Below are positions 2,712 through 32,495 of a DNA stretch of 40,247 nt, one piece after another. This stretch comes from a virus. The notes under the pieces are model-generated. The model had not been told where the DNA came from, did not search any database, and saw only the letters and a program-made list of their open reading frames with translations. Both the position numbers and the translations under genes were made by a program. Each line of letters opens with the position of its first letter. Within the stretch, counting starts at the first letter, position 1. The stretch lies in the IMG/VR virus record IMGVR_UViG_3300045988_055798. One strand, written 5' to 3'.

Positions 2712-3521
2712 TTACGATGTAGCCAGCATCCCCGCGGTGCGGAGCGCGGCCAATAGGTTGTTGAAATCCTGCTGCGTGGGGGCTGCGCTCAGGTCCGCAA
2801 TGGCGGCCATCTGCTTCACGCCTCCGAGGGTGGCTGCGGCGGCAGCGGGCAGTGTATACGACGGCCCGGCCGGCCCCTGGTCACCCTTTGGCCCTTTGGG
2901 GCCTTCCGGTCCTGCGGGCCCCTGCGGCCCAGTTTCCCCTTGCGGTCCCGGTTCCCCCTGTGGGCCGGGGTCCCCTTTGGGGCCCTGAGGCCCCGCAGTG
3001 CCCTGCGCTGCGGGCACTGGCCCCACATAGGCAATGCGCAGCTCGGCCACGCCATTCCCGTCCGCCGGGCCGCCCCACTGGGCGTTGACCAGCGCCACAG
3101 TGTTTTCCCCGTCCGCCTCCGCCTCGAAGTCGCCCGGCTGATAGCCTCCGCTGGCAGTTACCCGGACATAGACTGTTCCATCCACCGCCGGAGCGCCCTT
3201 CCGGCACCTTACGTTGATGCACCCTCGCTGGAATACGGAGACTGGTTCTCCCGGGCCGTACCGCCCCTCATTCTGGCTGTAAAACTCGGACGCGGACTTG
3301 ACCTCCCGGCCGGCCACGCCGATGAACTGGTTTCCGGTGTTTCCAGCCCCCATGGGGATCACCTCGCCCTTCTGCCCCCGTACCAGGGGCATCCCGAAGG
3401 GTATGTCCTCCGCTCCGCCCAAAGGGGCGGTGGTGACGATCATATCCGGCTGTCTGGCATAGCTGCCGGAAAAGCCATGGGACATATCCCGGCCAATGGT
3501 CTGAGGACGAAGGGGCATCAT
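2712..3521 (-). CDS. Capsid decoration/cement-like protein with collagen-like repeat and C-terminal tail
   Basis: 269 aa. The N-terminal ~165 aa are paralogous to 2187..2699, followed by a Gly-X-Y run and then a [14 protein letters not shown]...[15 protein letters not shown] tail. Confidence 0.65.
2862..3002 (-). repeat. Collagen-like Gly-X-Y tract (about 15-16 triplets) inside the CDS
   Basis: aa 174-220: [47 protein letters not shown]. Confidence 0.9.
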
Positions 3522-7578: not shown

Positions 7579-9315
7579 TCACTCCTTCCAGGACTTTTTA
7601 ACGATCACACTTCCGCTACCATCCGCCTCAAGCCAATACCGCTTGCCCTTATAGCTGACTTGACCTTGTTGTCCCGTTTTGGCTCCCGGATATTTGGTAT
7701 TGAACTCACCCCGCAGAATACCGAAGGTCTTGGCTGAGACGGTTTTCCCCCGCTTGTTCGCCCTCTTTGACGGCGCGTACTTTGTTTCCCCAATTTTACT
7801 ATTTCCGCCGCCGCTTGTCCATCTCCCTTTTTTATCCCTTGGCTGGCTGGGCGAATAATCCCATGTCAGCGCGTCCTGCGCGGCCCCCTCAAAAGGGGCG
7901 GATATCTCCCCTCCGTACCCCAGCCCTGCCAATGGATCCCGCAGGGCGGTCACATCCTGGTAGGTTTTCCCGGCGTTGGCCGCGATCTCCTCTTCGGAAA
8001 TACTGTCAAACATCCCGGTCTCGTCCGCCAGCTTCTTGAGCTCCCTCTGAGCCGTGTCCGCCCGGAACAGGCCCGCCTGAAAGGTATCCCGGATGGCCTG
8101 GGCCTTTTTCAGCGCGATCTCCGCCACCTCGGCCGCCGTGGGAGTCCACAGGGGCGGGAAAGTGATGTCCAGCCCGTCGGGTACCGCCCCCCAGGCTGAC
8201 ATGGCCAGGACCGGCAGCAGCTTTTCCAGAATGGGCCGAAGCTTGGCCTCCCGCAGCGTGTCCACGTAGTCATAGTAGTTCCGAAGGTCGCTCTCCCCGG
8301 TGGCGTTCATCCCCGCCGGGGAGCGTCCGAACAGCTTGGTCACCGGAATCCGGGACGCGCCGGACAGGTCGAGGCACATGGAGTCGTAGACCTCCTGGAG
8401 CCCGGTAAAGGTGTACTGGGTATTCTTAATCTGGTCGCCCCGGTTGACCAACTGCATGCCGAAATTGGACTTCATCACGCTTTGGGCCTGCATCACGTTC
8501 CAGAACCGCCTCTGCTGCTCCCCGGACGTAACGGAAAAGAGCTGGTCCAGGTTCTGCACCTCCATGGTGTCCACGTTGGCCCGGAAGGTGAGCGCGGCCA
8601 TGTTGGCGGCCACGTTGTCATGCTTAACCACATCATTGTATAGGGCCTCCACCTCGGACTCTCCCCAGTACAGCTCCGCCACCCGCTCCAGGAAGGGCAG
8701 GTCGCGGCCGGTGAACCGCACCAGCCTTGAGTGGTGCACCTTCGCCACCGTGTTCCCCCTGGCGTTGGTGATGGAGTAATAGGCGGGCACCGGCTCTCCG
8801 CCCTCGAATACCAGCTCCATACCGGGTACCACGCCCTGCCAGCGGTCGAGTATGTAAAGCCCTTGGAAGGTACCGGGGTAAATGCTCTCCAGCTCCAGCG
8901 GCTGGCCCAGCATCCCCTCCTGTCCGCGGATCATGATAAGTCCGGCGGCGCCGCCGTACAGCCTGCCCCACCGCAGTCCCTCGTTGACCCGCTCCCGGAG
9001 CGCCGTCACGCGCTGAACGCGATCCAGTTCCTTCAGGTGCTCCGGCCCCACCGCTCCGGCGAGAGCAAACCACTTCTTTGTCATGTCGTCCGGGATGATG
9101 CCCACCACGTTCTGTACTACCCAGTTGTCCCGGTAGAGGGAGTTGAGCAGGGCGTAGTTGTCCGTCATCCGGGTCAGCGGATACTCTGTGGCCTCCAGCG
9201 GCGACTGGGAGCCATAGCCCAGCCGGAACAGCGGGTTGGAAAATGCGTCTTGTACGCTCACCGCCTCGGTATTTGGTTGTGCGCCCCTGGGGCGGCTTTT
9301 ATTGCGTCTGGACAC
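7579..9315 (-). CDS. Portal protein (DUF1073-type) with Lys/Gly-rich C-terminal extension
   Basis: 578 aa, immediately downstream of TerL. Its size and position fit a portal. The tail contains SQPRDKKGRWTSGGG and is basic. Confidence 0.8.
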   Translation of the reverse strand: MSRRNKSRPRGAQPNTEAVSVQDAFSNPLFRLGYGSQSPLEATEYPLTRMTDNYALLNSLYRDNWVVQNVVGIIPDDMTKKWFALAGAVGPEHLKELDRVQRVTALRERVNEGLRWGRLYGGAAGLIMIRGQEGMLGQPLELESIYPGTFQGLYILDRWQGVVPGMELVFEGGEPVPAYYSITNARGNTVAKVHHSRLVRFTGRDLPFLERVAELYWGESEVEALYNDVVKHDNVAANMAALTFRANVDTMEVQNLDQLFSVTSGEQQRRFWNVMQAQSVMKSNFGMQLVNRGDQIKNTQYTFTGLQEVYDSMCLDLSGASRIPVTKLFGRSPAGMNATGESDLRNYYDYVDTLREAKLRPILEKLLPVLAMSAWGAVPDGLDITFPPLWTPTAAEVAEIALKKAQAIRDTFQAGLFRADTAQRELKKLADETGMFDSISEEEIAANAGKTYQDVTALRDPLAGLGYGGEISAPFEGAAQDALTWDYSPSQPRDKKGRWTSGGGNSKIGETKYAPSKRANKRGKTVSAKTFGILRGEFNTKYPGAKTGQQGQVSYKGKRYWLEADGSGSVIVKKSWKE

Positions 9316-10536
9316 TTACTCGAACCTCCAGTCCGGCAGTGAATTGATGTAATAGCGCAGGGCGTCCGGCCCGTGGTCCCGCTCCTTCAGGGGCTTCTCA
9401 TCCCCCCGCTGGCCCGCCTTCTCGTCCCACAAATAGGTGCCCAGTTCGTCCAGCAGGCCGGCACAGGCTTCACTGACCAGAATTTTTCTGCGGTGAAACA
9501 GGCTTCCGGTCTTGCGTATACCGTCCAGCACCTCATTTTCCGCAGGGATGACATACACCCCCCGCCGCCTCAGTTCCTCGATAAACGAGGCCGCCGAGGG
9601 ATCTACGATCACCGCGCACCATTCCCTGCCCAGAAAGTCCAGAAGGTCGTCGGCATACTCCTGGTCGGTCTTCTGCCGGCGCTCCTTCCGGCTGTCCCAG
9701 CGGTACTCCCTGTCCACCCGGATCACTCCATCGTGGTCATAGATGTCCAGAAACACCGTAGGGTTGGCGGTACCGTAGTCACAGGCCACGGTTCTCTGGG
9801 AAACCCATTCCAGATCCACCGGGCGTTCCTGCGTCCGGTAGACATTCTCTGTCTGGTCAAACATGTCGTAGATAAGCCCCTCCGACATGACCCACAGGCC
9901 CAGAATGTACCGCTGGTAGAACACCCCGGCATACATGCTCCGGTATCTGGCCCGGGTGGCCTCGTCCAGCGCCGGGTTGTCCTCCATGGTGAAGTGCAGA
10001 TGGAGGGCCTTGTGCTCCTCCGCCTTTAGAATCCACTCCTGCCGGAACCAGTGCTGCGGCCCCTCCGGGTTGCAATTGAACCATAGCTTTGCCCCTGTCA
10101 CGGAGCACCGAGCCATGGCCTGTTCCACAAAAGAGCGGGGCATCAGGGCCACCTCGTCCAGCAAAACCCCCGCCAGGGTGATACCCTGAATCAGCGTGTA
10201 GGAGCTCTCGTCCTTGCCGCCGAACAGGTAGAAGCGGTTCTCCCGCACCCCACGCCGGGCCGTAATTACATGGCCGGAGCGGCTGTAGGAAATGGTGAAG
10301 TTCTGCCGCAAATACTGCACCGCCAGAAGCGGCGTCACAATGTTGCGCTCCACCGCCCCTACCGACTTCCCACAGAGTGCAAACGCGTAGCCGTTGAAAC
10401 GTCCCATTGCCCACAGGAAGAAGGACAACGACATGACTGAGGTTTTTCCCGACCGCACCGCCCCGTCACAGATAAGCGCATCATAGTCCCGGTATGGGAA
10501 ACGCAGAATCTCCCTCTGCTTTTCAGAGAAGCCCAT
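9316..10536 (-). CDS. terL: Terminase large subunit, PBSX/XtmB type
   Basis: 406 aa. Walker A CDGAVRSGKTS and a nuclease half. Overlaps the TerS end by 14 nt. Confidence 0.9.
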   Translation of the reverse strand: MGFSEKQREILRFPYRDYDALICDGAVRSGKTSVMSLSFFLWAMGRFNGYAFALCGKSVGAVERNIVTPLLAVQYLRQNFTISYSRSGHVITARRGVRENRFYLFGGKDESSYTLIQGITLAGVLLDEVALMPRSFVEQAMARCSVTGAKLWFNCNPEGPQHWFRQEWILKAEEHKALHLHFTMEDNPALDEATRARYRSMYAGVFYQRYILGLWVMSEGLIYDMFDQTENVYRTQERPVDLEWVSQRTVACDYGTANPTVFLDIYDHDGVIRVDREYRWDSRKERRQKTDQEYADDLLDFLGREWCAVIVDPSAASFIEELRRRGVYVIPAENEVLDGIRKTGSLFHRRKILVSEACAGLLDELGTYLWDEKAGQRGDEKPLKERDHGPDALRYYINSLPDWRFE

Positions 10537-10918
10537 TTCCCATCTCCTCCTTCAGCGACGCGGTGATCGGATCGTCGTCCATGTCCTGCATACCGCCGGC
10601 GCCCGCCGCCCCCTGCTCTCCCAACAAGTCAAACAGCACCTTTGCCGCCTTCGCGTCGCCCTTGGCCGCCTTTAGGGTCAGGCCCGCAATCACCGCCATC
10701 TGGTTATCCACATCCTCCGGTTCTACGCCGTCACGGGCCAGCTTGTTCCATGCCCGCTTGTCCGCCACCGGGAGAGAGAGGTACAGGTCTGCCGCTTCTC
10801 TCAGGCTACGCTTTCGCCGCCGTGACGCGCCGGATGCACGACCGCCTTCACGCCCGAGTTCTCTAGCTTCGCTCTGGCTTCGCTGATCCATCGGTATAAG
10901 ATTCTGTTCATTCGGCAT
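10523..10918 (-). CDS. Terminase small subunit (putative)
   Basis: 131 aa with a basic N-terminus, directly upstream of terL. GAGAGGTGGTG RBS. Confidence 0.55.
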   Translation of the reverse strand: MPNEQNLIPMDQRSQSEARELGREGGRASGASRRRKRSLREAADLYLSLPVADKRAWNKLARDGVEPEDVDNQMAVIAGLTLKAAKGDAKAAKVLFDLLGEQGAAGAGGMQDMDDDPITASLKEEMGNGLL

Positions 10919-13909: not shown

Positions 13910-14132
13910 TATTTTTTCCCCTTTCCGGCGGCCCATCAAAGGCCGTCCAGTATTTGTCGTACAGATCCATCGCAAACGGCTTGATGTGCTTGCAGTACAG
14001 ATATCCATCCCTGCACCCTTCTGCAATCTCCAGGCCGCCCCATTGGAGCTGGGCTATCCCTGCGCCCTCAATGTAGATTGCCGTCTCCTGGGTAATGGAT
14101 TCCAGTTCTGCGCGTGTGTATTGGTGTCTCAC
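13887..14132 (-). CDS. Hypothetical protein (81 aa)
   Basis: Its start overlaps the upstream stop by 4 nt. Confidence 0.45.
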   Translation of the reverse strand: MRHQYTRAELESITQETAIYIEGAGIAQLQWGGLEIAEGCRDGYLYCKHIKPFAMDLYDKYWTAFDGPPERGKNNENPSGI

Positions 14133-14587
14133 GGCGATACCTGCTTCCCATCGTCAATCTCAAACTTGATTTTCATCTGGGCGGGGCATAGATCAACTTC
14201 TGGCCGGCGTTTCCCCGTCCACCGCAACCCGCCAGCCTGTCCTACGCATTTCCACCCAGCCGCCCGCAGGCTGGACCCGTTTTCGCTGTCCAGTATGTAT
14301 GTAATCAGTTTGTGGTAGCCCATTGCTCTGGCAGCTCTCCAGGCTGCGGCATAGAGCATACTGCAAGCGTTGTGCGTCCCATCGGTACAGAGGCGGTTAA
14401 CCTCCAGAGTCCAGCCGTCATCAAGATAACGGCTCACCGGCCTACCTACAATAGCAATGCCGACGATTTTCTCTCCGTCGGTGCAACCAATGGAAAATTT
14501 GTGGCCCGTGACCGGCTTGTGGTGCCGATGGTGCTGCTCCACAAAGGCATTGGCCTCTTTCAGTGTAATGGGACAAACCTCAAGCAT
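14129..14587 (-). CDS. XF1762-family GNAT-like acyltransferase-fold protein
   Basis: ANAFVEQHHRHHKP...IVGRPVSRYLDDGWTLEVNRLCTDG..NACSMLYAAAWRAARAMGY..LITY matches that family as recalled. Confidence 0.65.
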   Translation of the reverse strand: MLEVCPITLKEANAFVEQHHRHHKPVTGHKFSIGCTDGEKIVGIAIVGRPVSRYLDDGWTLEVNRLCTDGTHNACSMLYAAAWRAARAMGYHKLITYILDSENGSSLRAAGWKCVGQAGGLRWTGKRRPEVDLCPAQMKIKFEIDDGKQVSP

Positions 14588-15476: not shown

Positions 15477-16100
15477 TCATCCACCACAGATACCTCCCCA
15501 CTGTTGGGCCATAGCCTTGGCAATTCCTCCGAATGTTTTGGAGCGGGTTTTAGGATCACGCTCTTTGCGCCCCTGGAATCGCCTGTAATTCCCGTGAGCG
15601 TCCTTACATCCACCATTGACATAAGGCTTATGCTCCAAAATAATCTCGGTTGGCATAAGCGGCGGTAGTCCCTTCAACCACAGACAAGTTCTTTTGCTGT
15701 ATGGATGCCCGAATTGGTACGGCTGGATTGCCTGCTGATACGGTGGAAGGCCAACTATTTTCATCGGCGTAGGATTTTCAATCGCTATTCGGGGGCACTC
15801 CGCCTCATAGAATTTCATAAAAAACGCTTTTGCTTCCATAGCTTTTTCAAACCGTTCCGGTACGATTTCGCCGTTTACTCTCATTCGGACAGCCCCAGCT
15901 TTTGTCATGTAAGTACACGGCGGGTGGGCGATAATCAAATCCCACTGCATTTTCAGCAACTCCAGCGCGTCTGCTTGGATGTGCCATTGAGGGAAACCAC
16001 CGCTGCACGGCTCAATGTCGCAGCTGTACGCATCATGCCCCAACGCCCGGAACGCTTTGCAGACTTCCTGCGACTCCTCACAGGCCACCAACACCCTCAT
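15477..16100 (-). CDS. Short-form DNA (cytosine-5) methyltransferase-like protein
   Basis: 207 aa. VLVACEESQ, AHPPCTY (motif IV PPC), IENP (motif VI), QPYQFGH..K.TCLWLKGLP, TFGGIAKAMAQQW. Confidence 0.75.
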   Translation of the reverse strand: MRVLVACEESQEVCKAFRALGHDAYSCDIEPCSGGFPQWHIQADALELLKMQWDLIIAHPPCTYMTKAGAVRMRVNGEIVPERFEKAMEAKAFFMKFYEAECPRIAIENPTPMKIVGLPPYQQAIQPYQFGHPYSKRTCLWLKGLPPLMPTEIILEHKPYVNGGCKDAHGNYRRFQGRKERDPKTRSKTFGGIAKAMAQQWGGICGG

Positions 16101-21996: not shown

Positions 21997-22115
21997 AGTA
22001 GCCACTCCACCCAGTTAGGCAGCCCGCAGGCTACCACGATGCAGGCGGTAAACACTACCGAGCTCACAGCTTCCCGGCGTGTCCGGCGGCGCTCGTTTCG
22101 GGTACGGTTTTTCAT
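21993..22115 (-). CDS. 40-aa basic/hydrophobic peptide (below the ORF-track cutoff)
   Basis: MKNRTRNERRRTRREAVSSVVFTACIVVACGLPNWVEWLL. ATGA overlaps at both ends. Confidence 0.35.
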   Translation of the reverse strand: MKNRTRNERRRTRREAVSSVVFTACIVVACGLPNWVEWLL

Positions 22116-22315
22116 ATAGATACCGCCTCCCTGACTGTCTTCCGTTCAAATTCCTCTAGGTCTGAGGGACGATATACATAAGGCCCATACCGATTTCCGC
22201 CTAAGTTTAGAGCGGTCAAACGCCCCTCCCTCACCCACCGCTGAACTGTTGTGATCTTTACTCCGTAGCGATTTGCGACCTCTTCGGTCGTAAATCGCGG
22301 TTCCAAATTCTCCAT
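22112..22315 (-). CDS. HTH_17 / excisionase-family (MerR-like) DNA-binding protein; first gene of the leftward early operon
   Basis: FTTEEVANRYGVKITTVQRWVREGRL. Confidence 0.7.
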   Translation of the reverse strand: MENLEPRFTTEEVANRYGVKITTVQRWVREGRLTALNLGGNRYGPYVYRPSDLEEFERKTVREAVSI

Positions 22316-22399: not shown

Positions 22400-22422
22400 G
22401 GGCGCGGAAGGGGGGTGAAATT

Positions 22423-22626
22423 ATGTCTCGCAAAGGTTTTCGCTATGAGTACAAGTTAACCTCGCACGATATTCTTGAATATGAAGCCGTAAACTTTGCC
22501 TACACGCAGGCCGGATGGAAAGACCTCGGTGCACCTCCTGGAGAAGGTTTCCCGGAGTCTATCATCTTTGAATGGGAAAAGGATGGGACTCCGTTGTACC
22601 CCGCAGTCAACTGGCCCCCGCTTTAA
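22423..22626 (+). CDS. Hypothetical protein (67 aa)
   Basis: ATG 22423 preceded by GGAAGGGGGGTGAAATT. MSRKGFRYEYKL... Confidence 0.5.
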   Translation: MSRKGFRYEYKLTSHDILEYEAVNFAYTQAGWKDLGAPPGEGFPESIIFEWEKDGTPLYPAVNWPPL

Positions 22627-22762
22627 CCCCTGCGATGTAGATATTGTGGTCGCTATCCTCGATGATTGCCGTCATCGCTGGATTGGCGGCCACAATGTCT
22701 TTGAAGTCGTTTTCATCAGAAAATATTACAATCTGATTGAACCCCGCCGGGGAAAAACCCAT
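22607..22762 (-). CDS. Hypothetical 51-aa protein
   Basis: Internal ATG of the 65-aa track ORF. Converges on and overlaps 22423..22626 by 20 nt. RBS is weak. Confidence 0.3.
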   Translation of the reverse strand: MGFSPAGFNQIVIFSDENDFKDIVAANPAMTAIIEDSDHNIYIAGVKAGAS

Positions 22763-22828
22763 AGATGTTCCCACCGTCCTCACCCCCTTCACCTCCCGCC
22801 CCATCAGGTGCGGGCTTTATTGTCCGGT

Positions 22829-23044
22829 TTATTGGACTTGCTCTGTGGTATCTTGAATCTGTCCAGAAACAAGTCTCCCAAGAGCGGCGTTCAGCTTTTC
22901 CTCCGCGCCCTTTGGCTCCTTGTGTCCGTTAAGTACAACACTGAGATACTTTGGGTTCCAGCCGACCTCAGCGGCAAGCTGCTTGGCCGTGACTCCGGCC
23001 AGGTGCATCCTGCCCAGCAGGTCAGCAGTCCACTTTGCAGGCAT
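22829..23044 (-). CDS. Cro/YdaS-like HTH protein (71 aa)
   Basis: ATG 23044 with GAAGGTGA RBS. GVTAKQLAAEVGWNPKYLSVVLNG. Confidence 0.55.
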   Translation of the reverse strand: MPAKWTADLLGRMHLAGVTAKQLAAEVGWNPKYLSVVLNGHKEPKGAEEKLNAALGRLVSGQIQDTTEQVQ

Positions 23045-23048
23045 ACCA

Positions 23049-23077
23049 TTGTCACCTTCTTTCTGTTTTGGTAGAAT
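23049..23077 (+). promoter_or_regulatory. Sigma-70-type promoter for 23100..23531
   Basis: TTGTCA, 17 nt, TAGAAT with a TGg extension. AAGGAGG RBS follows. Confidence 0.5.
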
Positions 23078-23099
23078 AGCCTCGTAAGGAGGCGTAAAA

Positions 23100-23531
23100 A
23101 TGGAAAACGAATTAGTTAGCATTTTGTCTGTTCAAGTATCTATCATTGCTTCGGTGGTATCCATTATCGCAGTTACAATTTGCTCGGTTATTTCAGCTGT
23201 AATAACTCAGCGAGGGGCTAAGAGCACAAAACAAACCGAGCTGATTTTCCATGAAATGATTACCGCCTATTATGATTTGCTGCGTGCTGGAGGTGAGTTT
23301 TCCGATGTAACCAGTCAAGAGCAAGTCACAAGATTTACAGATGCCTATACACGCGCATTGCTCTTTGCAACCCCAAAGACCAAAGAGTTAATACAGGAAT
23401 ACAGAGACAGCATCACAAAAATATCGGTGTTGAAACTAAATCCGCCTGAGGATTTTATGGAACAGGTTCGCCAACACGAAGATCTGTCTACTGATTTAGT
23501 CAACGCTATGCAAAAGGATTTACGAAAGTAA
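23100..23531 (+). CDS. Membrane-anchored helical protein (143 aa), candidate superinfection-exclusion/abortive-infection factor
   Basis: N-terminal TM stretch ILSVQVSIIASVVSIIAVTICSVISAVI. AT-rich. Has its own promoter. Confidence 0.6.
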   Translation: MENELVSILSVQVSIIASVVSIIAVTICSVISAVITQRGAKSTKQTELIFHEMITAYYDLLRAGGEFSDVTSQEQVTRFTDAYTRALLFATPKTKELIQEYRDSITKISVLKLNPPEDFMEQVRQHEDLSTDLVNAMQKDLRK

Positions 23532-23708
23532 ATCGTGGAACATAACAACCAGCAACACAACAGCTAGGACCAAGGCCGGGGCGGCAATCAACCAGGGCCT
23601 ATTGCTTTCCGGGTTCTCTCTTATTAGGTGACAAGCGGCCAGGGCAGAAAACATAAATGCCAATGCCATGATTAGATAAACCAGCAAGCGAACCGTAAGC
23701 AACGACAC
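23520..23708 (-). CDS. 62-aa two-TM hydrophobic protein
   Basis: LLVYLIMALAFMFSALAA and WLIAAPALVLAVVLLVVMF. GTG/TTG start after AAGGGGGG. Overlaps the 23100..23531 end by 12 nt. Confidence 0.4.
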   Translation of the reverse strand: MSLLTVRLLVYLIMALAFMFSALAACHLIRENPESNRPWLIAAPALVLAVVLLVVMFHDLLS

Positions 23709-23769
23709 TCACCCCCCTTCATTTCCACCAATTCCACCCACCTCCTTCCTTATTCACCGTTTTTCTGTG

Positions 23770-23798
23770 TTGCGATTGTCCCGCCGATGGGTTATACT
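23770..23798 (+). promoter_or_regulatory. Sigma-70-type promoter for 23820..24074
   Basis: TTGCGA, 17 nt, TATACT. Confidence 0.45.
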
Positions 23799-23819
23799 TT
23801 CCCCAAAGGGGGTATTTGC

Positions 23820-24074
23820 ATGGTAACGACATCCATACTTAAATCTAACAACGGGGAATGTCCCTTGTGGGCTGTTGATGTATCAGTTTGCGGGTGGTAT
23901 AGAGAGACAGAAGGCGGCATATGGCAATTCCTCCGAGCCGAGTGCCCTATTATTGAAAACGCAAAACTGCCTCTACATAAGCAAGACCCAAGATACAAAC
24001 TGATGTTTTGTAAGGACAAATTTTCTTGTCCACTTTACTCGCAGTTCCAGCCAAAGATCACGAAGGGCATATAG
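23820..24074 (+). CDS. Cys-rich hypothetical protein (84 aa)
   Basis: ATG 23820 after AAAGGGGGT. ECPLW...VCGW...ECPII...FCKDKFSCPLY. Confidence 0.5.
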   Translation: MVTTSILKSNNGECPLWAVDVSVCGWYRETEGGIWQFLRAECPIIENAKLPLHKQDPRYKLMFCKDKFSCPLYSQFQPKITKGI

Positions 24075-24235
24075 CGGAACACCTTTTCGCAGGTCTCCGG
24101 TTCCCTTGTCAGTTTATGCTTTGCAATCACAAACGCCAGATCTTCCCCCAAGGCCTTAAATTCGTTCGGGCCAAGAATCTTGTCCAGTTCGTCCCCAAGC
24201 GCCGTCTGTTCGGCGCTCTTTTTCTTTTCGTCCAT
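24035..24235 (-). CDS. Hypothetical 66-aa protein downstream of the XRE gene
   Basis: ATG 24235 after AAGGGGTG. Overlaps the 23820..24074 end by 40 nt. Confidence 0.4.
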   Translation of the reverse strand: MDEKKKSAEQTALGDELDKILGPNEFKALGEDLAFVIAKHKLTREPETCEKVFRYMPFVIFGWNCE

Positions 24236-24263
24236 CGGGTTCACCCCTTTCTATCAGTCCTGT

Positions 24264-24470
24264 TTATTGGGCTTTATCTTTGGTATCATGCTCGCTAAGA
24301 AGATCATCAACAGTGACACCATATAATCGAGCAATCTCAAGAAGTCTTTTGGCGTTTGGCCTAGTTACTCCGGTTTCCCATTGGTATACTGCGGCATCTG
24401 ATACACCTATATTTTTCATTACTTGACTTACAGAAAGCCCAGCCGAGATACGTGCATCACGGAATCCCAT
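24264..24470 (-). CDS. XRE-family HTH regulator (68 aa, Cro/CI-like)
   Basis: ISAGLSVSQVMKNIGVSDAAVYQWETG. GGAGGTG RBS. Confidence 0.8.
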   Translation of the reverse strand: MGFRDARISAGLSVSQVMKNIGVSDAAVYQWETGVTRPNAKRLLEIARLYGVTVDDLLSEHDTKDKAQ

Positions 24471-24498
24471 TTTTTCACCTCCGAATACTAAGTTTTAC

Positions 24499-24527
24499 TT
24501 GACAATTCGATAGACTTAGCTTAATAT
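24499..24527 (+). promoter_or_regulatory. Rightward sigma-70-type promoter
   Basis: TTGACA, 17 nt, TAATAT. Confidence 0.5.
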
Positions 24528-27842: not shown

Positions 27843-28740
27843 TGCTTACCACTCCTTCCGCGACGGGGATAATGTGCTTCAAGACCACATTCGTGGTAAC
27901 AGGGATATACACGGTAGAGGACGTGAGGATATTCCCCTCTGCATCCAGCAGTTCCAGGGCGGTGATCTCTGTGGCCTGGGACGGCATGATGGTATAGGTG
28001 ACGGTCAGCTCCGACCCCTCCACGGTCTTGGTCAGTCCGGTAATCGCAACTGTTCCGTTGACCCGGGCGGAGGCCACATCGCCGCTGACGAAGTTCGCCA
28101 CACCGGCCAAGAGGGCCTGCTGGATGGATGGCGTCTCAGGCATCTTAATCACTCCCTCCGGGCCGTCGGTTGCGAAGGGCAGCCGCCCCAGCTCCCACGC
28201 CCCCAGCTTGTAGTTATAAATTCTCTGCGCGGACGAAATTATCTCGGAGAGCAGCAGCCCCGTCCGCACAAACGGGGCGTTGACCCACACGATATGCGCC
28301 GGTTTGATACGGTTGATGGTGAAAGCCAGCTCAGTGGCGTAGTTCTGGTTTTGGGCCGCGCTTTCGATATAAAGTGTGTAGTTTGGGTAGTCTACCGTGA
28401 CCTTCCATTCACCCGGCCCAATCAGCTCGTCCAGCTTTTGATAGAGGAATCCCAGGGTATAGGGCGGACGGGTAGAAATGCGGTTGAGCACGCGGGTCCT
28501 TCGGAATGCCAGGCTTTCCACCTGTGGGTTTGGTACAATTCGGAATACCTGCTCCCACATGCCAACCGCCCTCTCGTCCATCGTCTGGAAAAAGAAATTG
28601 TCAGCCACACCCACGATTTCCTCCGCCAGGGCCTCAAACTGCTGCTGTTCGGTCAAGCAGATCTGCTGATAGTCCAGCACCTCCCGGTACCACGGGGGCA
28701 ACAGGGACAGCAGGCTGGTATCCAGCTCAATTGGATTCAT
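27835..28740 (-). CDS. DUF2313 (XkdU/YmfQ, gpI-like) baseplate protein with C-terminal extension
   Basis: LLSLLPPWYREVLDYQQI...RRTRVLNRI... Confidence 0.7.
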   Translation of the reverse strand: MNPIELDTSLLSLLPPWYREVLDYQQICLTEQQQFEALAEEIVGVADNFFFQTMDERAVGMWEQVFRIVPNPQVESLAFRRTRVLNRISTRPPYTLGFLYQKLDELIGPGEWKVTVDYPNYTLYIESAAQNQNYATELAFTINRIKPAHIVWVNAPFVRTGLLLSEIISSAQRIYNYKLGAWELGRLPFATDGPEGVIKMPETPSIQQALLAGVANFVSGDVASARVNGTVAITGLTKTVEGSELTVTYTIMPSQATEITALELLDAEGNILTSSTVYIPVTTNVVLKHIIPVAEGVVSNG

Positions 28741-29848
28741 TCAGCGTCACCGTCCCTATCACGGGCACCTGCTGGGTTTCGCCCGTCTCCGTCAAGAGGA
28801 GATCTGCCGTACCGCCGTTGAGCTGCACGTTGGTGGCGTTGACCACGCCGGCCACCCCTACGATAGCGGCGGTAACCCTGGCCACGTACACATCGGCAGC
28901 GTAGGACACGTTGTTGGAGGACACGTTGGCGTCCCACCCCTGCCGCACACTGCGCAGATATGTCTCAATGGCCTGCTCCACCGGTTCCTGCACCTGTCCG
29001 ATGGCATGTCCGGCGGCCAGCAGGAGAGTGGCGGAGACATTCACCGCCAACTCTGTCGGGGCCACCGCCGTCACCTTTGCCCCGATAGGGGCCAAGCCCA
29101 GCCCCAGCCCCTGGTTGGGGGGCGGGTCGATGGCATTCTGCACCTTCTCCACCAGTGTGGATGAGGCAGGCAGGAAGTCCGCCCCCAGCACGGACAGCTT
29201 CACAGTGCCACCGCCGTTCCAGGTGGGGTATACCTGCACCCCGCCCACGCCGTCAATGGCGAGGACGTTCTGGCGGTAGTCGGCAATATTGCCGCCAAAG
29301 GGACGGTTATTGAGCGCCTCAATCAGCCGTTCCCGAAATGCGCTGTCGGTCTCCGTGTCGTCACCAGGCACCAGGATATCCGTAATCTGTGCACTGGTCA
29401 GCCCCGGGATGGCGGTAATCGGCAGGATGGGCCCGGTGTACTCGTTTCCGATGGCGCCGGGGGTCTCCGCGGCCAGCTGGTACTGGTTCCCCGTATCGGT
29501 TGCCGCCGTTACGGTAAAGTTGATTGAGCCCGCTCCGTTGATGGTGGAGAACCGGGCTCCAATGGGCACAGAGGTATTGAACACGCCCAGGCGTACCGCG
29601 GCGGAGGCCGGATATCGGGTCAGGCCGCCAATCACAGCCAGCATATCCAGGGAATCCCCCACTGCTGTCTGCACGAAGGCCGCCCGCTGTACCTGATCCA
29701 GGCTGAGATAGAACCCCGCCAGGGTGTAGGCCGCCGGAGAGATGGCCGTCGGGATGGGGGCCGTGTCCCGCTTGTCATAAGTATCGGGCACCCGGTCCAG
29801 CATCTCCTGACGGAGGCTCGCATAGGTCTCTTGAGTAAAGTCAATCAT
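28727..29848 (-). CDS. Baseplate J-like protein (XkdT type)
   Basis: 373 aa. N-terminal FTQETYASLRQEMLDRVP. Position and size fit. Confidence 0.8.
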   Translation of the reverse strand: MIDFTQETYASLRQEMLDRVPDTYDKRDTAPIPTAISPAAYTLAGFYLSLDQVQRAAFVQTAVGDSLDMLAVIGGLTRYPASAAVRLGVFNTSVPIGARFSTINGAGSINFTVTAATDTGNQYQLAAETPGAIGNEYTGPILPITAIPGLTSAQITDILVPGDDTETDSAFRERLIEALNNRPFGGNIADYRQNVLAIDGVGGVQVYPTWNGGGTVKLSVLGADFLPASSTLVEKVQNAIDPPPNQGLGLGLAPIGAKVTAVAPTELAVNVSATLLLAAGHAIGQVQEPVEQAIETYLRSVRQGWDANVSSNNVSYAADVYVARVTAAIVGVAGVVNATNVQLNGGTADLLLTETGETQQVPVIGTVTLNESN

Positions 29849-29861
29849 GTACTCACCTCAC

Positions 29862-29898
29862 AATAAAAAATCCCGCTGCCTCATACCGAGACAGCGGG
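29862..29898 (-). terminator. Strong rho-independent terminator abutting the baseplate-J RBS
   Basis: Minus strand: CCCGCTGTCTC-GGTAT-GAGGCAGCGGG (11 bp, one G-U pair) followed by ATTTTTTATT. Confidence 0.8.
29879..29895. repeat. Left arm of the 17-nt inverted repeat bracketing the cassette
   Basis: cctcataccgagacagc. Its reverse complement gctgtctcggtatgagg matches 32044-32060 at 16 of 17 positions. Confidence 0.85.
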
Positions 29899-29905
29899 AA
29901 GATGG

Positions 29906-30454
29906 TTATGCGGTTAGTCCCTTCGCACCGTCCATCCCCGGAAGACACATCTGTCCGGGAATTTGGCGGTTCAGGGAAACGGGAACCGGAATGTTCCAGG
30001 TGACGAACACGTCTCTTGCCATTGCGCCCACCTCCTGGGGCGTACTCCCCATGTCCAGCATCACCCGGCGGGTAACGCGAATCAGGTTTGCAATTGCGTT
30101 GGGGGATACTTCCGGGGCAAGTCGGGCGGGGGCTGTCAACTGCTCGCTCATCTTCTCGAAGGCCGTCACATAGGCGGCAGTGAACAGCACCCCCTTCTTG
30201 CCGGGCATTTTGTTGGCGATCATGTCACAACCCTTTCGGGTAATCAGGTAGCAGGGGAGTTCTCGGCCAGTTAAATCTTTATAGCTGGACTGAATGAAGA
30301 AATCACTGAGGGGGACTTCGCCCTCAGTAAGATACCCGGAATATGTACGGATACTTTTCAAAAGCTCGTTGTGGCTCCGCTCTACCATCCGCGCCACATC
30401 ACGGCTATCTACCACGTCCACGTCGTGGAAGTTGAAAACTTTTAGCTCGTTCAT
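29906..30454 (-). CDS. Rha-family phage regulatory protein
   Basis: Start at ATG 30454 (MNELKVFNFHDVDVVDSRDVARMVERSHNELLKSIR) after AAGGA. Confidence 0.7.
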   Translation of the reverse strand: MNELKVFNFHDVDVVDSRDVARMVERSHNELLKSIRTYSGYLTEGEVPLSDFFIQSSYKDLTGRELPCYLITRKGCDMIANKMPGKKGVLFTAAYVTAFEKMSEQLTAPARLAPEVSPNAIANLIRVTRRVMLDMGSTPQEVGAMARDVFVTWNIPVPVSLNRQIPGQMCLPGMDGAKGLTA

Positions 30455-30486
30455 TGATTCTATCCTTTCTACCAGTTGTTGTGCCC

Positions 30487-30687
30487 TCACAGCCCCAAAT
30501 AGAAGGTAAAGAGTCCACTAGCTACCCCGGCGGACTCCAGCCGCTCTTGGGCCAGCTCCTTTGCCTGTTTGCTGTCCAGCCTCGCCAGGGCGCAAGCGTC
30601 CGACTCGTAGTAGCTCTCCAAGTCCCGCATGGCCTCAATCGTGGCCGTCAGAATCTCCTGCGGAATCAGATACATTACTTCATTCAT
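30487..30687 (-). CDS. Hypothetical 66-aa protein
   Basis: ATG 30687 (MNEVMYLIPQ...) after GAGGAAA. Confidence 0.45.
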   Translation of the reverse strand: MNEVMYLIPQEILTATIEAMRDLESYYESDACALARLDSKQAKELAQERLESAGVASGLFTFYLGL

Positions 30688-30697
30688 GGCCGTTTCC

Positions 30698-31270
30698 TCA
30701 CGACCGGGCGGGAAGTTCACGTTCAACCGCCCGTTTTATGTCCGTGGCATCAAATACGGAATCAAAATACAACATGCGAAGTGTATCGCTGAGCGGTATA
30801 AGATACTCTGCACTCGTGAACCTCTCTATCATACCCCGTATTACTTCTATGGCGGCGTTCCGTTCTTTTACACGTTTCAGAAGTTCGTCCACAGATTTCC
30901 GTGGCGTTTCCACTTTAGGCGGCTCCGTCCGTTTGTTGAAGTAATTCCGCACAAGCTCCCGCTGCACCTTCCACGCCAGATCGTCCGTGAAGGACTTCAC
31001 CAGCATTAAGTAGCCGGTCTCGGTAATCAGGGTAACATCCATGCACTGTCTTGTATCCATCCCGCCGAACGCTGTCCGAAATTCGGACGCCGTTATTTTG
31101 AAGAAGTCGGTTCCCTCAAGAAACCGCTCCCGGTGGTCGTTGAAGCGCTTCCGGGCCGTACCGGGCGCTCTGCCGTGTACGGCGTCGATTTCCCGGAACG
31201 TAACCACCCTCTGGCCCAGATACTCTTTCACGGCCAGATTCTGGCCATTGACCGCCATATATTCGTTCAT
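30698..31270 (-). CDS. ORF6N-domain (KilA-N-related) antirepressor-like protein
   Basis: GQRVVTFREIDAVHGRAPGTARKRFNDHRERFLEGTDFFKI matches the ORF6N pattern. Confidence 0.8.
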   Translation of the reverse strand: MNEYMAVNGQNLAVKEYLGQRVVTFREIDAVHGRAPGTARKRFNDHRERFLEGTDFFKITASEFRTAFGGMDTRQCMDVTLITETGYLMLVKSFTDDLAWKVQRELVRNYFNKRTEPPKVETPRKSVDELLKRVKERNAAIEVIRGMIERFTSAEYLIPLSDTLRMLYFDSVFDATDIKRAVERELPARS

Positions 31271-31282
31271 AAAAACCTCCTG

Positions 31283-31311
31283 TTGTTTTTCCCAGAAGGC
31301 TGTGGCATAAT
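31283..31311 (+). promoter_or_regulatory. Antisense promoter, unit B
   Basis: TTGTTT, 17 nt, CATAAT with a TGg extension. Same geometry as unit A. Confidence 0.55.
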
Positions 31312-31317
31312 AGATTT

Positions 31318-31391
31318 GCCAAACCTTTTGGGTTGGGTGGCAGGGTGCTCGTTGTTCTCTTGGTCGGGAGAACGGGCACCCTGTTTTTATT
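31318..31391 (+). ncRNA. Candidate ~74-nt cis-antisense RNA, unit B
   Basis: From about 7 nt after the -10 to the hairpin CAGGGTGC..GTTCTC-ttggtcgg-GAGAAC..GCACCCTG followed by TTTTTATT on the plus strand. Confidence 0.5.
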
Positions 31392-31560
31392 CACCGAGTT
31401 CTTCGTCGATCTTTCGATTGAGCCATTCTGCTTTAGAGATTTGCAGTTCTTTTAGTTTTTGCTCAAACTGCTCCATCTTCTGACGTTCAATCTCGACCGT
31501 AAACGACTTAAACTTGATTCTCCGCTCTTTGAAGTACTCGGCCCTGCTCTCAGGTGCCAC
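31387..31560 (-). CDS. Ribbon-helix-helix protein, unit B (57 aa, Arc/CopG-like)
   Basis: GTG start 7 nt after AAGGAGG. (M)APESRAEYFKERRIKFKSFTVEIERQKMEQFEQKLKELQISKAEWLNRKIDEELGE. Shares the MAP start with unit A. Confidence 0.55.
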   Translation of the reverse strand: MAPESRAEYFKERRIKFKSFTVEIERQKMEQFEQKLKELQISKAEWLNRKIDEELGE

Positions 31561-31586
31561 ATCTTCACCTCCTTGTTACGGGCAAC

Positions 31587-31615
31587 ATTATATTATGTTG
31601 CGGGCAACAAGTCAA
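31587..31615 (-). promoter_or_regulatory. Consensus sigma-70-type promoter B with operator-like repeats
   Basis: Minus strand: TTGACT, 17 nt, TATAAT. GTTGCCCGCAAC and GTTGCCCGTAAC flank the -10. A/T-rich AAAATTTTAAAAA lies upstream. Confidence 0.65.
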
Positions 31616-31683
31616 GAGATTTTTAAAATTTTATTCTGTGCGGCGATGGTAATGTCCTGTCCGTTGATTGCTAGGGTGTTCAA
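31612..31683 (-). pseudogene. Truncated 5' remnant of a second ORF6N-type gene (23 codons)
   Basis: AGGAGG, 7 nt, TTG. MNTLAINGQDITIAAQNKILKIS-stop aligns with MNEYMAVNGQNLAVKEY of the intact gene, then runs into promoter B. Confidence 0.5.
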
Positions 31684-31699
31684 TCTAAAAACCTCCTGA

Positions 31700-31728
31700 T
31701 TGATTTTCCCGCGGAGGTCTGGTAGAAT
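31700..31728 (+). promoter_or_regulatory. Antisense promoter, unit A
   Basis: TTGATT, 17 nt, TAGAAT with a TGg extension. Confidence 0.55.
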
Positions 31729-31734
31729 AGATTT

Positions 31735-31808
31735 GCCAAACCTCCGGGTGTGGTGCATAAGGCAATCGGGTACAGCTTCCTACGGCGGGCCCGGTTGTCT
31801 TATTTTTT
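31735..31808 (+). ncRNA. Candidate ~74-nt cis-antisense RNA, unit A
   Basis: Shares the 5' GCCAAACCT with unit B. Ends at the hairpin AAGGCAATCGGG...CCCGGTTGTCTT followed by ATTTTTT. Confidence 0.5.
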
Positions 31809-31964
31809 GACCGCTTCAATCCCCTTACGAATCAGCTCAAGTAGAGAAAATCCACTCTTCCGTGTGAAGTCTTGAATCTCTGCTTTTTCTTTTGGAGTTA
31901 CCCTTATAAATAGCCGTTCGGTCTTAGGGTTATCGCTTTTCGGTCTTCCTTGTGACGGAGCCAC
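31800..31964 (-). CDS. Ribbon-helix-helix protein, unit A (54 aa, MobC/CopG-like)
   Basis: GTG start after AAAGGGGGTG. (M)APSQGRPKSDNPKTERLFIRVTPKEKAEIQDFTRKSGFSLLELIRKGIEAVKK. Confidence 0.6.
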   Translation of the reverse strand: MAPSQGRPKSDNPKTERLFIRVTPKEKAEIQDFTRKSGFSLLELIRKGIEAVKK

Positions 31965-31994
31965 CCAAACACCCCCTTTATTGTCCGCACATTA

Positions 31995-32023
31995 AATATA
32001 TATCGTACGCACAATAAAGTCAA
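31995..32023 (-). promoter_or_regulatory. Sigma-70-type promoter A with an inverted-repeat operator
   Basis: Minus strand: TTGACT, 17 nt, TATATT. TTATTGTGCG / CGGACAATAA inverted repeat spans the -10. AAAAAATTTTGGAAAA lies upstream. Confidence 0.6.
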
Positions 32024-32043
32024 GAGGTTTTCCAAAATTTTTT

Positions 32044-32060
32044 GCTGTCTCGCTATGAGG
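32044..32060. repeat. Right arm of the 17-nt inverted repeat bracketing the cassette
   Basis: gctgtctcgctatgagg. Lies upstream of the promoter A -35, between it and the gp25-like gene stop. Confidence 0.85.
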
Positions 32061-32084
32061 TTGTCAAGGTGCAATCTGGATAGG

Positions 32085-32495
32085 TCAGTTTAGAGTGACC
32101 TCCACACTGGTCTGCATCTCTCCATATACTGTGCTCACGGTGAGGGAGGCCCTCAACATATCCCCTTCCACGGCATACGTAAAGCCGGAGATCCCCCGCA
32201 CCCGGTCGTCCATTTTCAGCGCCTCGGTGATACGCCGCTGAAGTTCCGAGGCCACATACCCCGGGTCCTGCCCGATGAGCCCATCCCACTGCATCCCGGA
32301 GTAGGGGGAATAAATCTGCCAGCGGAACCGCTCCACGTTGAGAATGACTTCCACGGCCTGGCGGACGGACTGCCAGCCGTCGCACTCCCCCTGGATGCGG
32401 TTGGTTTCCTTGTTGATATACCACGTCCTGGAGGGCTGGGAGACGAAGGACACCCCGGCGGACAGGTCGATGGCGGATGTAGGTAAAGTCGGCAT
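32085..32495 (-). CDS. Baseplate wedge protein, gp25/W-like (DUF2634, XkdS type)
   Basis: 136 aa. SRTWYINKETNRIQGECDGWQSVRQAVEVILNVERF pattern. Confidence 0.7.
   Translation of the reverse strand: MPTLPTSAIDLSAGVSFVSQPSRTWYINKETNRIQGECDGWQSVRQAVEVILNVERFRWQIYSPYSGMQWDGLIGQDPGYVASELQRRITEALKMDDRVRGISGFTYAVEGDMLRASLTVSTVYGEMQTSVEVTLN

Follow-up and report, generated by a model that had tools for sequence, protein, structure and literature searches.

In the viral sequence IMGVR_UViG_3300045988_055798 from IMG/VR (40,247 nt, analysed over its whole length and hereafter called the window), about 2.25 kb of DNA separate the gp25-like gene of the contractile-tail module from the gene of baseplate protein J downstream of it. 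This segment (hereafter, the cassette) carries candidate repressor genes of the ribbon-helix-helix (RHH) type, antirepressor-like genes, two predicted promoters and a predicted intrinsic terminator. Our main subject is its two ends, namely, L, a boxA-like block followed by a strand complementary to the terminator, and R, the terminator itself. By appearance, the window is a complete, circularly permuted phage genome of about 40 kb; in the region from the gp25-like gene to J every gene lies on the minus strand. The features of the locus are listed below in the order of late transcription. Other loci are denoted by three-digit handles (e.g., L222), L and R alone always denoting the two end elements.

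32085-32495, minus strand: gp25-like Sheath_initiator gene, the upstream flank (Pfam PF10934, E 1.9e-18)
32060-32073, minus strand: 5′ block of L, boxA-like TGCACCTTGACAAC (family consensus TGCACCTTGAAAAC), the single exact site in the window
32044-32060, minus strand: leader strand of L, CCTCATAGCGAGACAGC, complementary at 16/17 positions to the 5′ arm and loop of R, 2.15 kb downstream
31995-32023, minus strand: predicted promoter P1, TTGACT-17-TATATT (10/12), downstream of L
31976-32019, inverted repeat: operator-like palindrome O1 over P1, 22-nt arms, 77%
31800-31964, minus strand: RHH1, 54-amino-acid (aa) RHH-type repressor candidate (Pfam NikA-like, 26.1 bits at a cut-off of 27; MobC_2-like)
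31700-31811, plus strand: predicted antisense RNA gene 1, with promoter TTGATT-17-TAGAAT and a TG at 31700-31728
31612-31683, minus strand: remnant 5′ end of a second ORF6N gene (LNTLAINGQD...), 23 codons, direct repeats D2/D5
31587-31615, minus strand: predicted promoter P2, TTGACT-17-TATAAT (11/12)
31572-31611, inverted and direct repeats: operator-like palindrome O2 over P2, two TGTTRCGGGCAACA sub-sites 22 bp apart
31387-31560, minus strand: RHH2, RHH-like 57-aa protein (no Pfam match; PHROG 3896, function unknown)
31283-31392, plus strand: predicted antisense RNA gene 2, with promoter TTGTTT-17-CATAAT and a TG at 31283-31311
30698-31270, minus strand: ORF6N-domain antirepressor-like protein, 190 aa (Pfam PF10543, E 5.4e-14; PHROG 4608 "anti-repressor", E 1e-41)
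30487-30687, minus strand: 66-aa open reading frame (ORF), no Pfam or PHROG match
29906-30454/30490, minus strand: Rha-domain antirepressor-like protein, 182 aa from ATG (Pfam PF09669, E 5.2e-21; PHROG 373/63)
29865-29899, minus strand: R, predicted intrinsic terminator (hairpin 29899-29871, 13-bp stem and T6, free energy dG -23.6, z -5.9)
29846-29859, minus strand: insert-supplied Shine-Dalgarno sequence (SD; GAGGTGA) and ATG of J
28727-29848, minus strand: Baseplate_J gene, the downstream flank (Pfam PF04865, E 1.6e-57)

The insert, its empty site and its alleles

We compared 65 IMG/VR loci encoding relatives of J. At 17 of them, with flanking proteins 97-99% identical to those of the window, there is no cassette: the two genes overlap with nothing in between, the TTG start of J sharing TTGA with the gp25 stop (...ACTTGATTGAC). 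Relative to this empty site, segment 29849-32097 stands in place of 10 bp. It supplies the last three codons and the stop of the gp25-like gene and brings its own SD and ATG for J, and thus replaces the translational coupling (TTGA) of the empty site. A preliminary description of this DNA had also placed an insert between the two genes, with bounds 29862-32084, which are corrected here to 29849-32097. Pfam and PHROG searches, together with promoter and terminator scans, recovered all the genes, both promoters and the terminator at the positions given in that description. Its observation of AT-richer DNA was borne out as well, the GC content of the insert being 0.507 against about 0.60 in both flanks and within the lowest 5% of same-size windows, as was the contact of the terminator U-tract with the ribosome-binding site of J: R is the sole strong minus-strand terminator, and its T-run ends 5 nt before the SD.

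Two alleles were found in close relatives. Allele A (three loci, 1827 bp) has the same RHH1, 98% identical to that of the window, and an ORF6N protein with 77% identity, and lacks the second promoter and repressor. Allele B (five to six loci, 1241 bp) differs in its RHH gene and operator; it has the same Rha C-terminal domain, to which another N-terminal domain is fused. A divergent lineage, with J at 79% identity, carries unrelated RHH and Bro-N cargo at the same gp25|J junction with the same ends.

The window allele corresponds to allele A outside 31036-31651, where a 616-bp replacement brings P2, the 57-aa RHH2 gene and a new N-terminus of the ORF6N protein. The 99% identity to locus L001 stops at 31652, and the ORF6N remnant is left by the fusion of two cassette heads. 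Other assemblies also have the double-headed cargo, among them the integrase-bearing siphovirus L222 (9480-11960), where a truncated ORF6N remnant is followed by P2, the 57-aa gene, ORF6N, the 66-aa ORF and a Bro-N/ANT protein.

The comparison of filled and empty junctions yielded no target-site duplication or transposon ends, and no cassette examined contains a transposase or recombinase. Two other descriptions of the segment were considered and rejected: an invertible segment, since the orientation is the same in 11/11 related loci and in all cassettes examined and no invertase was found; and a transposon or miniature inverted-repeat transposable element, since the repeat is subterminal, a target-site duplication was not seen and no cassette has a transposase.

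The paired ends of the cassette and the host boxA

The borders of the insert in the window carry a 17-nt inverted repeat (16/17; 32044-32060 against 29879-29895), and 2 out of 300 shuffled sequences reach this value. According to the family consensus, L reads TGCACCTTGA(A/C)AAC, then C(C/T)TCATAT(C/T)GAGA(T/C)AGCGG, and R reads CCCCGCT(A/G)TCTCGATATGAGG(T/C)(A/G)GCGGGG, then a T-run; 19 nt of L are the reverse complement of the 5′ arm of R, its loop and the first bases of its 3′ arm. In the divergent lineage, both copies of the repeat differ from those of the window and still match each other.

A scan with the L motif gave 56 IMG/VR stretches, 56 metagenome stretches and seven GTDB genome stretches; the named genomes among them all belong to Oscillospiraceae (Oscillibacter, Colidextribacter) or to unclassified Clostridia. 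Cassettes of this kind are present in the isolates Colidextribacter sp. OB.20 (NZ_QWKG01000034.1), Bacterium 1xD42-67 (RAYO01000055.1) and Oscillospiraceae bacterium 38-13. The R partner lies 365-3684 nt downstream of L, with 34 distinct combinations of L, R and distance. The same pair brackets at least 29 distinct cassettes of 0.37-3.7 kb with unrelated cargo in Oscillospiraceae phages, the cargo ranging from RHH-antirepressor operons and a 50-aa ORF (alone or next to a small RHH-like gene) to membrane proteins and multi-gene sets, and the insertion sites being gp25|J, LysM-like|YqbQ, a position after Gp15-like chaperones of siphoviruses, and an early region. When R contexts were collected independently of L, 29 out of 38 had L upstream, and eight of the other nine were truncated.

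The position of the two elements relative to genes is similarly constrained. A co-oriented ORF ends 8-17 nt before L in 25 out of 29 cassettes (47 nt in one), and a co-oriented ORF starts shortly after R, typically within 15-27 nt, in 20 out of 28. A promoter matching the consensus at 9/12 or more positions is found within 70 nt after L in 33 out of 52 distinct post-L segments; in most cassettes, a strong promoter follows L by about 21 nt, forming a shared frame of L, an UP-like sequence and TTGACT.

In the 29 distinct L:R pairs, standard pairs occupy 97.6% of 551 cells, compared to 28-50% when the partner is slid, the former percentage being inflated by the choice of partners according to their complementarity. 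Where one side alone has changed, the result is almost always a G.U pair in the sense RNA, and this bias favours pairing of the mRNA strand over a repeat at the DNA level. The predicted L:R duplex has a free energy of -34 to -51 kcal/mol, compared to -7 to -32 kcal/mol for the R hairpin alone.

The 5′ block of L is also found in ribosomal RNA (rrn) operons of the host group. The motif ACCTTGWAAA has exactly two sites in the 6.2-kb rrn operon of Pusillibacter faecalis, about 170 nt before 16S and in the 16S-23S spacer, which are the canonical boxA positions. The spacer boxA (TGCACCTTGAAAAC) is identical to the family block of L (14/14) and differs from the window copy at one position (13/14), and the spacer boxA of Vescimonas fastidiosa (TTGCACCTTGAAAAC) matches L at 15/15 positions. 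In Pusillibacter, 15 nt starting inside boxA (AAACTGAACAATGTG) pair perfectly with the 23S trailer; thus, the leader-trailer helix of the rrn operon starts exactly where the complementary strand of L starts. It has been demonstrated that the complex nucleated at the rrn boxA keeps the leader tethered at the exit channel of the polymerase; presumably, it brings the leader to its complement once 1.5-2.9 kb have been transcribed and promotes formation of the leader-trailer helix, which RNase III uses as a substrate (PMC8632103, PMC10250234).

No boxB hairpin was found at L, the L region folding weakly (dG -8.3, z -1.5), and no N-like gene was recognised in the window. Searches of Rfam (gathering thresholds for the whole window; E≤1 for 29700-32200) gave no family for L, R or the antisense RNAs, and a full-text literature search with the L/R sequences and for boxA-bearing morons found no paper.

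Several loci show particular arrangements of the two elements. Two small L/R cassettes of 434 and 498 nt occur in one baseplate operon in L096 and L120 (IMG/VR 3300006141_000181 and 3300006153_000127), at LysM-like|YqbQ-like (with a 43-aa ORF seen) and at gp25|J (with a 50-aa ORF and a small RHH-like gene). In the siphovirus L068 (2380-3400), an L/R antirepressor cassette follows the Gp15-like chaperone, and a 311-aa reverse-strand gene sits between the cassette and the tape-measure gene; since R is preceded there by an A-run and lacks a following U-run, it would terminate this convergent gene. At L121, 6031-6100 (Oscillospiraceae metagenome-assembled genome JAETSB010000003.1), boxA and the L strand are fused to the tail of R (GAGATAGCGGGGATTCTCTTTT), with the SD of the next gene following; this "solo" site looks like a deletion scar formed via the short direct repeat TAGCGG, present in L and in the 3′ arm of R. 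In L074 (minus strand, L at oriented position ~1860), L102 (~10090-10800) and L181 (minus strand, L at oriented position ~464), a hairpin CCGGGGAT..CTCCCCGG directly follows L and reads as the terminator of a reverse-oriented cargo gene; in L102, an R with a 1-nt deletion in the loop lies about 700 nt downstream of L.

Cargo genes and their predicted control

Among the sigma-70-like sites in 9 kb, P1 and P2 score highest. A palindrome of 40-44 bp, made up of two sub-sites at a distance of 22 bp, lies over each of them, and a small repressor-like gene comes next; such spacing is usual for RHH tetramers. The palindromes behind the same -35 hexamer vary from allele to allele, as expected for immunity specificities. 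The operator-like palindromes and the repressor-like genes make the predicted promoters look autoregulated, and the earlier view of them as "constitutive-looking" is not retained, given also the conserved antisense RNA gene described below.

The assignment of both small proteins to the RHH family, as initially proposed, is supported for RHH1 by near-threshold Pfam matches to RHH families and by a match to PHROG 876, "transcriptional repressor" (E 3.7e-7), and is only probable for RHH2. The 104 homologues of RHH2 all lack annotation, with weak Pfam matches among them to RepB, ParG and HicB-like, all RHH families. The AlphaFold2 model based on a multiple sequence alignment consists of a helix, an extended segment and two further helices (predicted confidence, pLDDT, 87), and a Foldseek search with this model against PDB gave a single weak match, the RHH antitoxin RelB. 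RHH2 is thus a probable RHH protein with an extra N-terminal helix. A single long helix, obtained from single-sequence AlphaFold2 prediction, was an artefact superseded by the alignment-based model. PDB sequence searches with both small proteins returned nothing meaningful.

According to Pfam, the cargo has no ANT or P22 antirepressor domains, only ORF6N and Phage_pRha. The C-terminal domain of Rha is 99% shared with cassettes whose N-terminal part does not match that of the window protein. Inside the Rha coding sequence (30303-30330, minus strand), there is a terminator-like hairpin of 10 pairs followed by TTTCTTCATT, which may be a chance occurrence or an internal attenuator. In the window, L002, L068 and L116, the last antirepressor-like gene is directly preceded by a small ORF of 66-95 aa, the layout of L116 being different; such an ORF might encode a modulator of the antirepressor.

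Both predicted antisense RNAs have the same organization (about 75 nt), namely, an extended -10 promoter, a conserved 5′ hairpin, a variable long hairpin, and a U-run. The first (about 31733-31811) has dG -34.7 and z -2.2 and scores 67 bits with covariance model R1; the second (about 31316-31392) has dG -38.2 and z -4.2 and scores 80.9 bits, the -35 box of its gene sitting 1 nt from the ORF6N SD. Compensatory changes are observed at 11 out of 24 pairs. The covariance model, built on five copies, gave 21 matches in 40 sources, covering no fewer than 12 further cassettes; the matches in the window and in oriented loci L001, L002, L023 and L222 are opposite to the cassette strand. The corresponding leader occurs before the ORF6N gene and again before the ORF6N remnant, and the predicted RNA extends over the leader and the 3′ end of the repressor gene but leaves out the ribosome-binding site. 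The leader motif GGTTTGGCAAATCTATT was also considered as a sigma-54 or other alternative promoter, which was rejected on sequence inspection; it is better explained as the -10 box and start of the antisense RNA.

Interpretation and biological setting

Taken together, these data incline us, by a modest degree, to read segment 29849-32097 as a horizontally acquired, self-contained "ant moron" inserted exactly at the gp25/J stop/start overlap and framed by a host-type boxA and a strand directed against its own terminator, with late transcripts predicted to pass R. Of the two possibilities raised in the preliminary description, an inserted and independently regulated moron agrees with the lack of the cassette in many near-identical relatives and the presence of other alleles in others, and antitermination of late transcripts now has a candidate signal, the boxA and the terminator-complementary strand between the gp25 stop and P1. 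Release of other prophages from repression and counteraction of host immunity, named there as examples, are putative roles of the cassette.

As L comes after the gp25 stop and before the first cassette promoter, it is contained in late-operon transcripts only. In a transcript coming through the gp25-like gene, boxA would load factors of the NusB/NusE type, and the polymerase would carry L at the RNA exit channel, as with the leader of rrn operons; the 5′ arm of R, on emerging, would pair with L, no terminator hairpin would form, and transcription would proceed into J. RNAs initiated at P1 or P2 do not contain L and would stop at R, and the baseplate genes would not be expressed from the cassette. 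The cassette could then be expressed in the lysogen or in early infection without making the late operon polar, and the L:R helix may, additionally or alternatively, be an RNase III site. On the model of P22 immI, entry of naive DNA into a cell may lead to a burst of antirepressor synthesis, subsequently shut off by the RHH proteins and the antisense RNAs. More tentatively, L and R may act in a whole family of Oscillospiraceae phage morons as a portable "conditional terminator" that would exploit the leader-trailer delivery machinery of rRNA; termination would be set by the start of the transcript, and read-through RNAs would pass and/or be processed by RNase III.

A number of observations weigh against this interpretation. 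Of all L:R pairs in the family, that of the window is weakest (16/17; a G.G mismatch lies in the centre, and the end has AA in place of GG), and in its linked fold the duplex and hairpin states are nearly isoenergetic. Covariation of L and R is modest, with double changes at 2 out of 19 pairs, and C.A mismatches exist; many of the L/R loci are related to one another, and the fraction of standard pairs is subject to the selection of partners mentioned above. The U-run is lacking or the 3′ arm of R is decayed in L068, L122 and L147, the cargo of L102 is reverse-oriented, and no R was found in L074 and L181 within the 8.0 and 3.4 kb available downstream, respectively. Siphovirus L222, having the same cargo, has no L and a different terminator, and a search for an L-like complement of that terminator gave none; hence, L and R are not required for the cargo, and cargo and frame are separable modules. 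No CI-type target for the antirepressors was identified in the window, only small helix-turn-helix (HTH) proteins. The promoters, terminator, antisense RNAs, operator binding and loading of Nus factors are all predictions from sequence. Finally, the rrn complex of Escherichia coli acts mainly against Rho-dependent rather than intrinsic termination; we know of no experiment in which an antiterminator strand acted on an intrinsic terminator 0.4-3.7 kb away, and of no study of Nus biology in Oscillospiraceae.

We deem a different explanation unlikely, namely, that L and R are primarily DNA-level ends of a mobile or exchangeable cassette. They would serve insertion or allele swapping between phages, as homology blocks or subterminal inverted repeats, boxA would only prevent Rho-dependent polarity in the untranslated gap, and read-through of R, if needed, would be provided by a general late antiterminator of the phage or by inefficiency of the terminator. 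The precise junctions in two phage lineages, with lineage-specific sequence immediately outside the ends, and the "solo" L-R scar in L121 fit this explanation, as do the same ends around unrelated cargo at several genomic sites, the allele breakpoints at the -35 hexamer and within the Rha C-terminal domain, and the Rad52-like annealing protein encoded by the phage. On the other hand, the cassettes provide neither a recombinase or transposase nor a target-site duplication, the repeat is subterminal and only 19 nt long, and the orientation relative to the operon is the same in all cassettes examined. The G.U bias in the sense RNA is not predicted by a repeat acting in DNA, and the 14-15-nt identity with the rrn boxA, along with the coinciding helix starts, points to a function in RNA. 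The two explanations are not mutually exclusive.

Still less likely, in our view, is that the L:R helix is not an antiterminator and serves as an rRNA-like processing helix, cut by RNase III with the help of the boxA complex; this would excise the cassette RNA, separate the upstream and downstream late mRNAs, and control the antirepressor or J post-transcriptionally. The architecture is identical to that of the rrn boxA with the leader-trailer helix, an RNase III substrate (PMC10250234, PMC8632103). The helix, 19 bp with up to six additional pairs in the boxA region, is roughly of the size of such substrates, and L122, L128 and L147 retain the L-complementary part of R despite decay of the 3′ arm and the U-run. 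At the same time, 19 bp is the lower limit for RNase III, and R is a canonical hairpin with a U-run in most cassettes; as the helix necessarily competes with the R hairpin, antitermination would follow anyway. The near-consensus promoters, the strong terminator, and the view that the P22 ant moron affects, perhaps accidentally, late transcripts reaching the tailspike gene (PMC2629481) would fit a constitutive moron whose terminator merely attenuates late transcription and whose similar ends are functionless baggage, yet this is improbable given the operators, repressor genes and conserved antisense RNA genes, which argue for tight regulation, the almost obligatory co-occurrence of L and R, which stay complementary despite unrelated cargo and flanks, and the position of the essential baseplate gene J behind a terminator of -23.6 kcal/mol.

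For the moron framed by boxA and its own terminator, the closest known analogue of the cargo is immI of phage P22, an "ant moron" comprising mnt, arc, sar and ant that precedes the tailspike gene within the late operon and varies from one P22-like phage to another (PMC2629481). The late position of the cassette, first regarded as unusual for antirepressor modules, which were expected in early or lysogeny regions, thus has a precedent. Both are variable, independently regulated modules directly before a tail gene in the late operon (PMC2629481), with many alleles, missing from some syntenic relatives, and both combine, in the case of the window by prediction, small RHH repressors at a strong promoter, antirepressor genes, and a short antisense RNA gene placed between the two kinds of gene. 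They differ in many respects. The window phage is a myovirus of a Firmicute; its cargo shows no sequence homology to Arc, Mnt, Sar or Ant and has ORF6N and Rha N-terminal domains; two antirepressor-like genes are present; its two repressor genes share the orientation of the antirepressor genes, and a divergent mnt is lacking; the predicted antisense RNA is off the ribosome-binding site, only its -35 box lying beside the SD; and P22 uses gp23 antitermination rather than a boxA borne by the cassette. Given the lack of Rfam matches and Ant domains, we consider the cargo an analogue, not a member, of the P22 system.

The frame resembles the rrn boxA and leader-trailer system, with an identical boxA of 14-15 nt (in the Oscillospiraceae 16S-23S spacer) and a strand right after boxA that pairs 0.4-3.7 kb downstream and brackets the intervening sequence (PMC10250234, PMC8632103). 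It differs from this system in that protein-coding phage cargo is bracketed, the 5′ half of an intrinsic terminator takes the place of the trailer strand, and L has no boxB-like hairpin before it. As in the nut sites of phage lambda, a phage boxA in the nascent RNA lies upstream of terminators, and only polymerases that have transcribed the site would be modified; in contrast to them, L has no boxB hairpin or N-like protein and is rrn-like rather than lambda-like, is located at a moron border in the late operon and not just after an early promoter, and is matched to one cognate terminator by complementarity. Morons of lambdoid phages (HK97, HK022) are likewise inserts between late genes with their own promoter and terminator and a different composition, missing in relatives; the classical ones lack a conserved shared frame, whereas the L/R cassettes share boxA, an antiterminator-like end and a cognate terminator.

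T4-type phages reportedly have cassettes of another type, PeSLs (promoter-early stem-loop; ascribed to Arbiol et al., 2010), in which small cargo lies between conserved regulatory sequences, with apparent modular shuffling. These are said to be direct repeats of a promoter and a stem-loop, having no boxA and no complementarity of the left end to a terminator, and differ from L/R in sequences, hosts and logic.

The remaining genes of the window place the cassette in its phage.

1134-2171: capsid
7579-9315: portal
9316-10536: large terminase
17-21 kb: replication and recombination genes
22112-22315, minus strand: 67-aa Xis-like HTH_17 gene
22829-23122, minus strand: 97-aa small HTH gene
24264-24470, minus strand: 68-aa XRE-type HTH gene
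24.6-26.6 kb: holin and endolysin
27 kb to the window end: contractile tail module

The host group of the phage is gut Oscillospiraceae, and the phage is a myovirus occurring as a prophage. The latter follows from the 168.8-kb contig L220, which has the identical cassette and tail module, and in which a response-regulator gene and host-like genes come after the holin. No close relative was found among INPHARED phages, which gave short matches to antirepressor genes only. No integrase or long CI-type repressor was recognised in the window, where only small HTH proteins, including the 68-aa XRE-type one, were seen. The three HTH genes listed above are assigned to an AT-rich patch (22400-24500, GC 0.43-0.48) between the lysis and early genes, whose plus strand bears ORFs without an assigned function (a 143-aa membrane protein and a 95-aa Cys-rich protein); this patch is probably a switch or attachment region.

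The DUF4054 gene (385-873) is continued by the connector and tail genes at 39-40 kb. The capsid cement/decoration genes at 2712-3521 and 2187-2708 are paralogues, one of which has a collagen-like repeat and a phi29-type head-fibre C-terminal domain. The early region encodes a Mom-family protein and a DNA methyltransferase (14129-14587 and 15477-16100), which suggests that the phage modifies its own DNA.

The logic of the cargo is thus known, with the P22 ant moron as its precedent, and the new element is the L/R frame, found neither in Rfam nor in the literature searched. Irrespective of the frame, the cargo extends the immI design to abundant phages of human-gut Clostridia, and the P22-like cargo in gut phages bears on cross-induction of prophages in the microbiome. 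If the frame works as proposed, it would explain how phages without a lambda-Q-type antiterminator tolerate cassettes with promoters and terminators in essential late operons, as arbitrary cargo could be inserted there without polarity. To our knowledge, it would be the first case of a mobile cassette borrowing the boxA and leader-trailer logic of host rRNA, the first intrinsic terminator with an antiterminator strand kilobases upstream, and the first terminator with efficiency set by the origin of the transcript. L and R together would then provide a sequence signature for finding accessory cargo in genomes of gut phages, and a compact portable genetic insulator for synthetic biology of Firmicutes.

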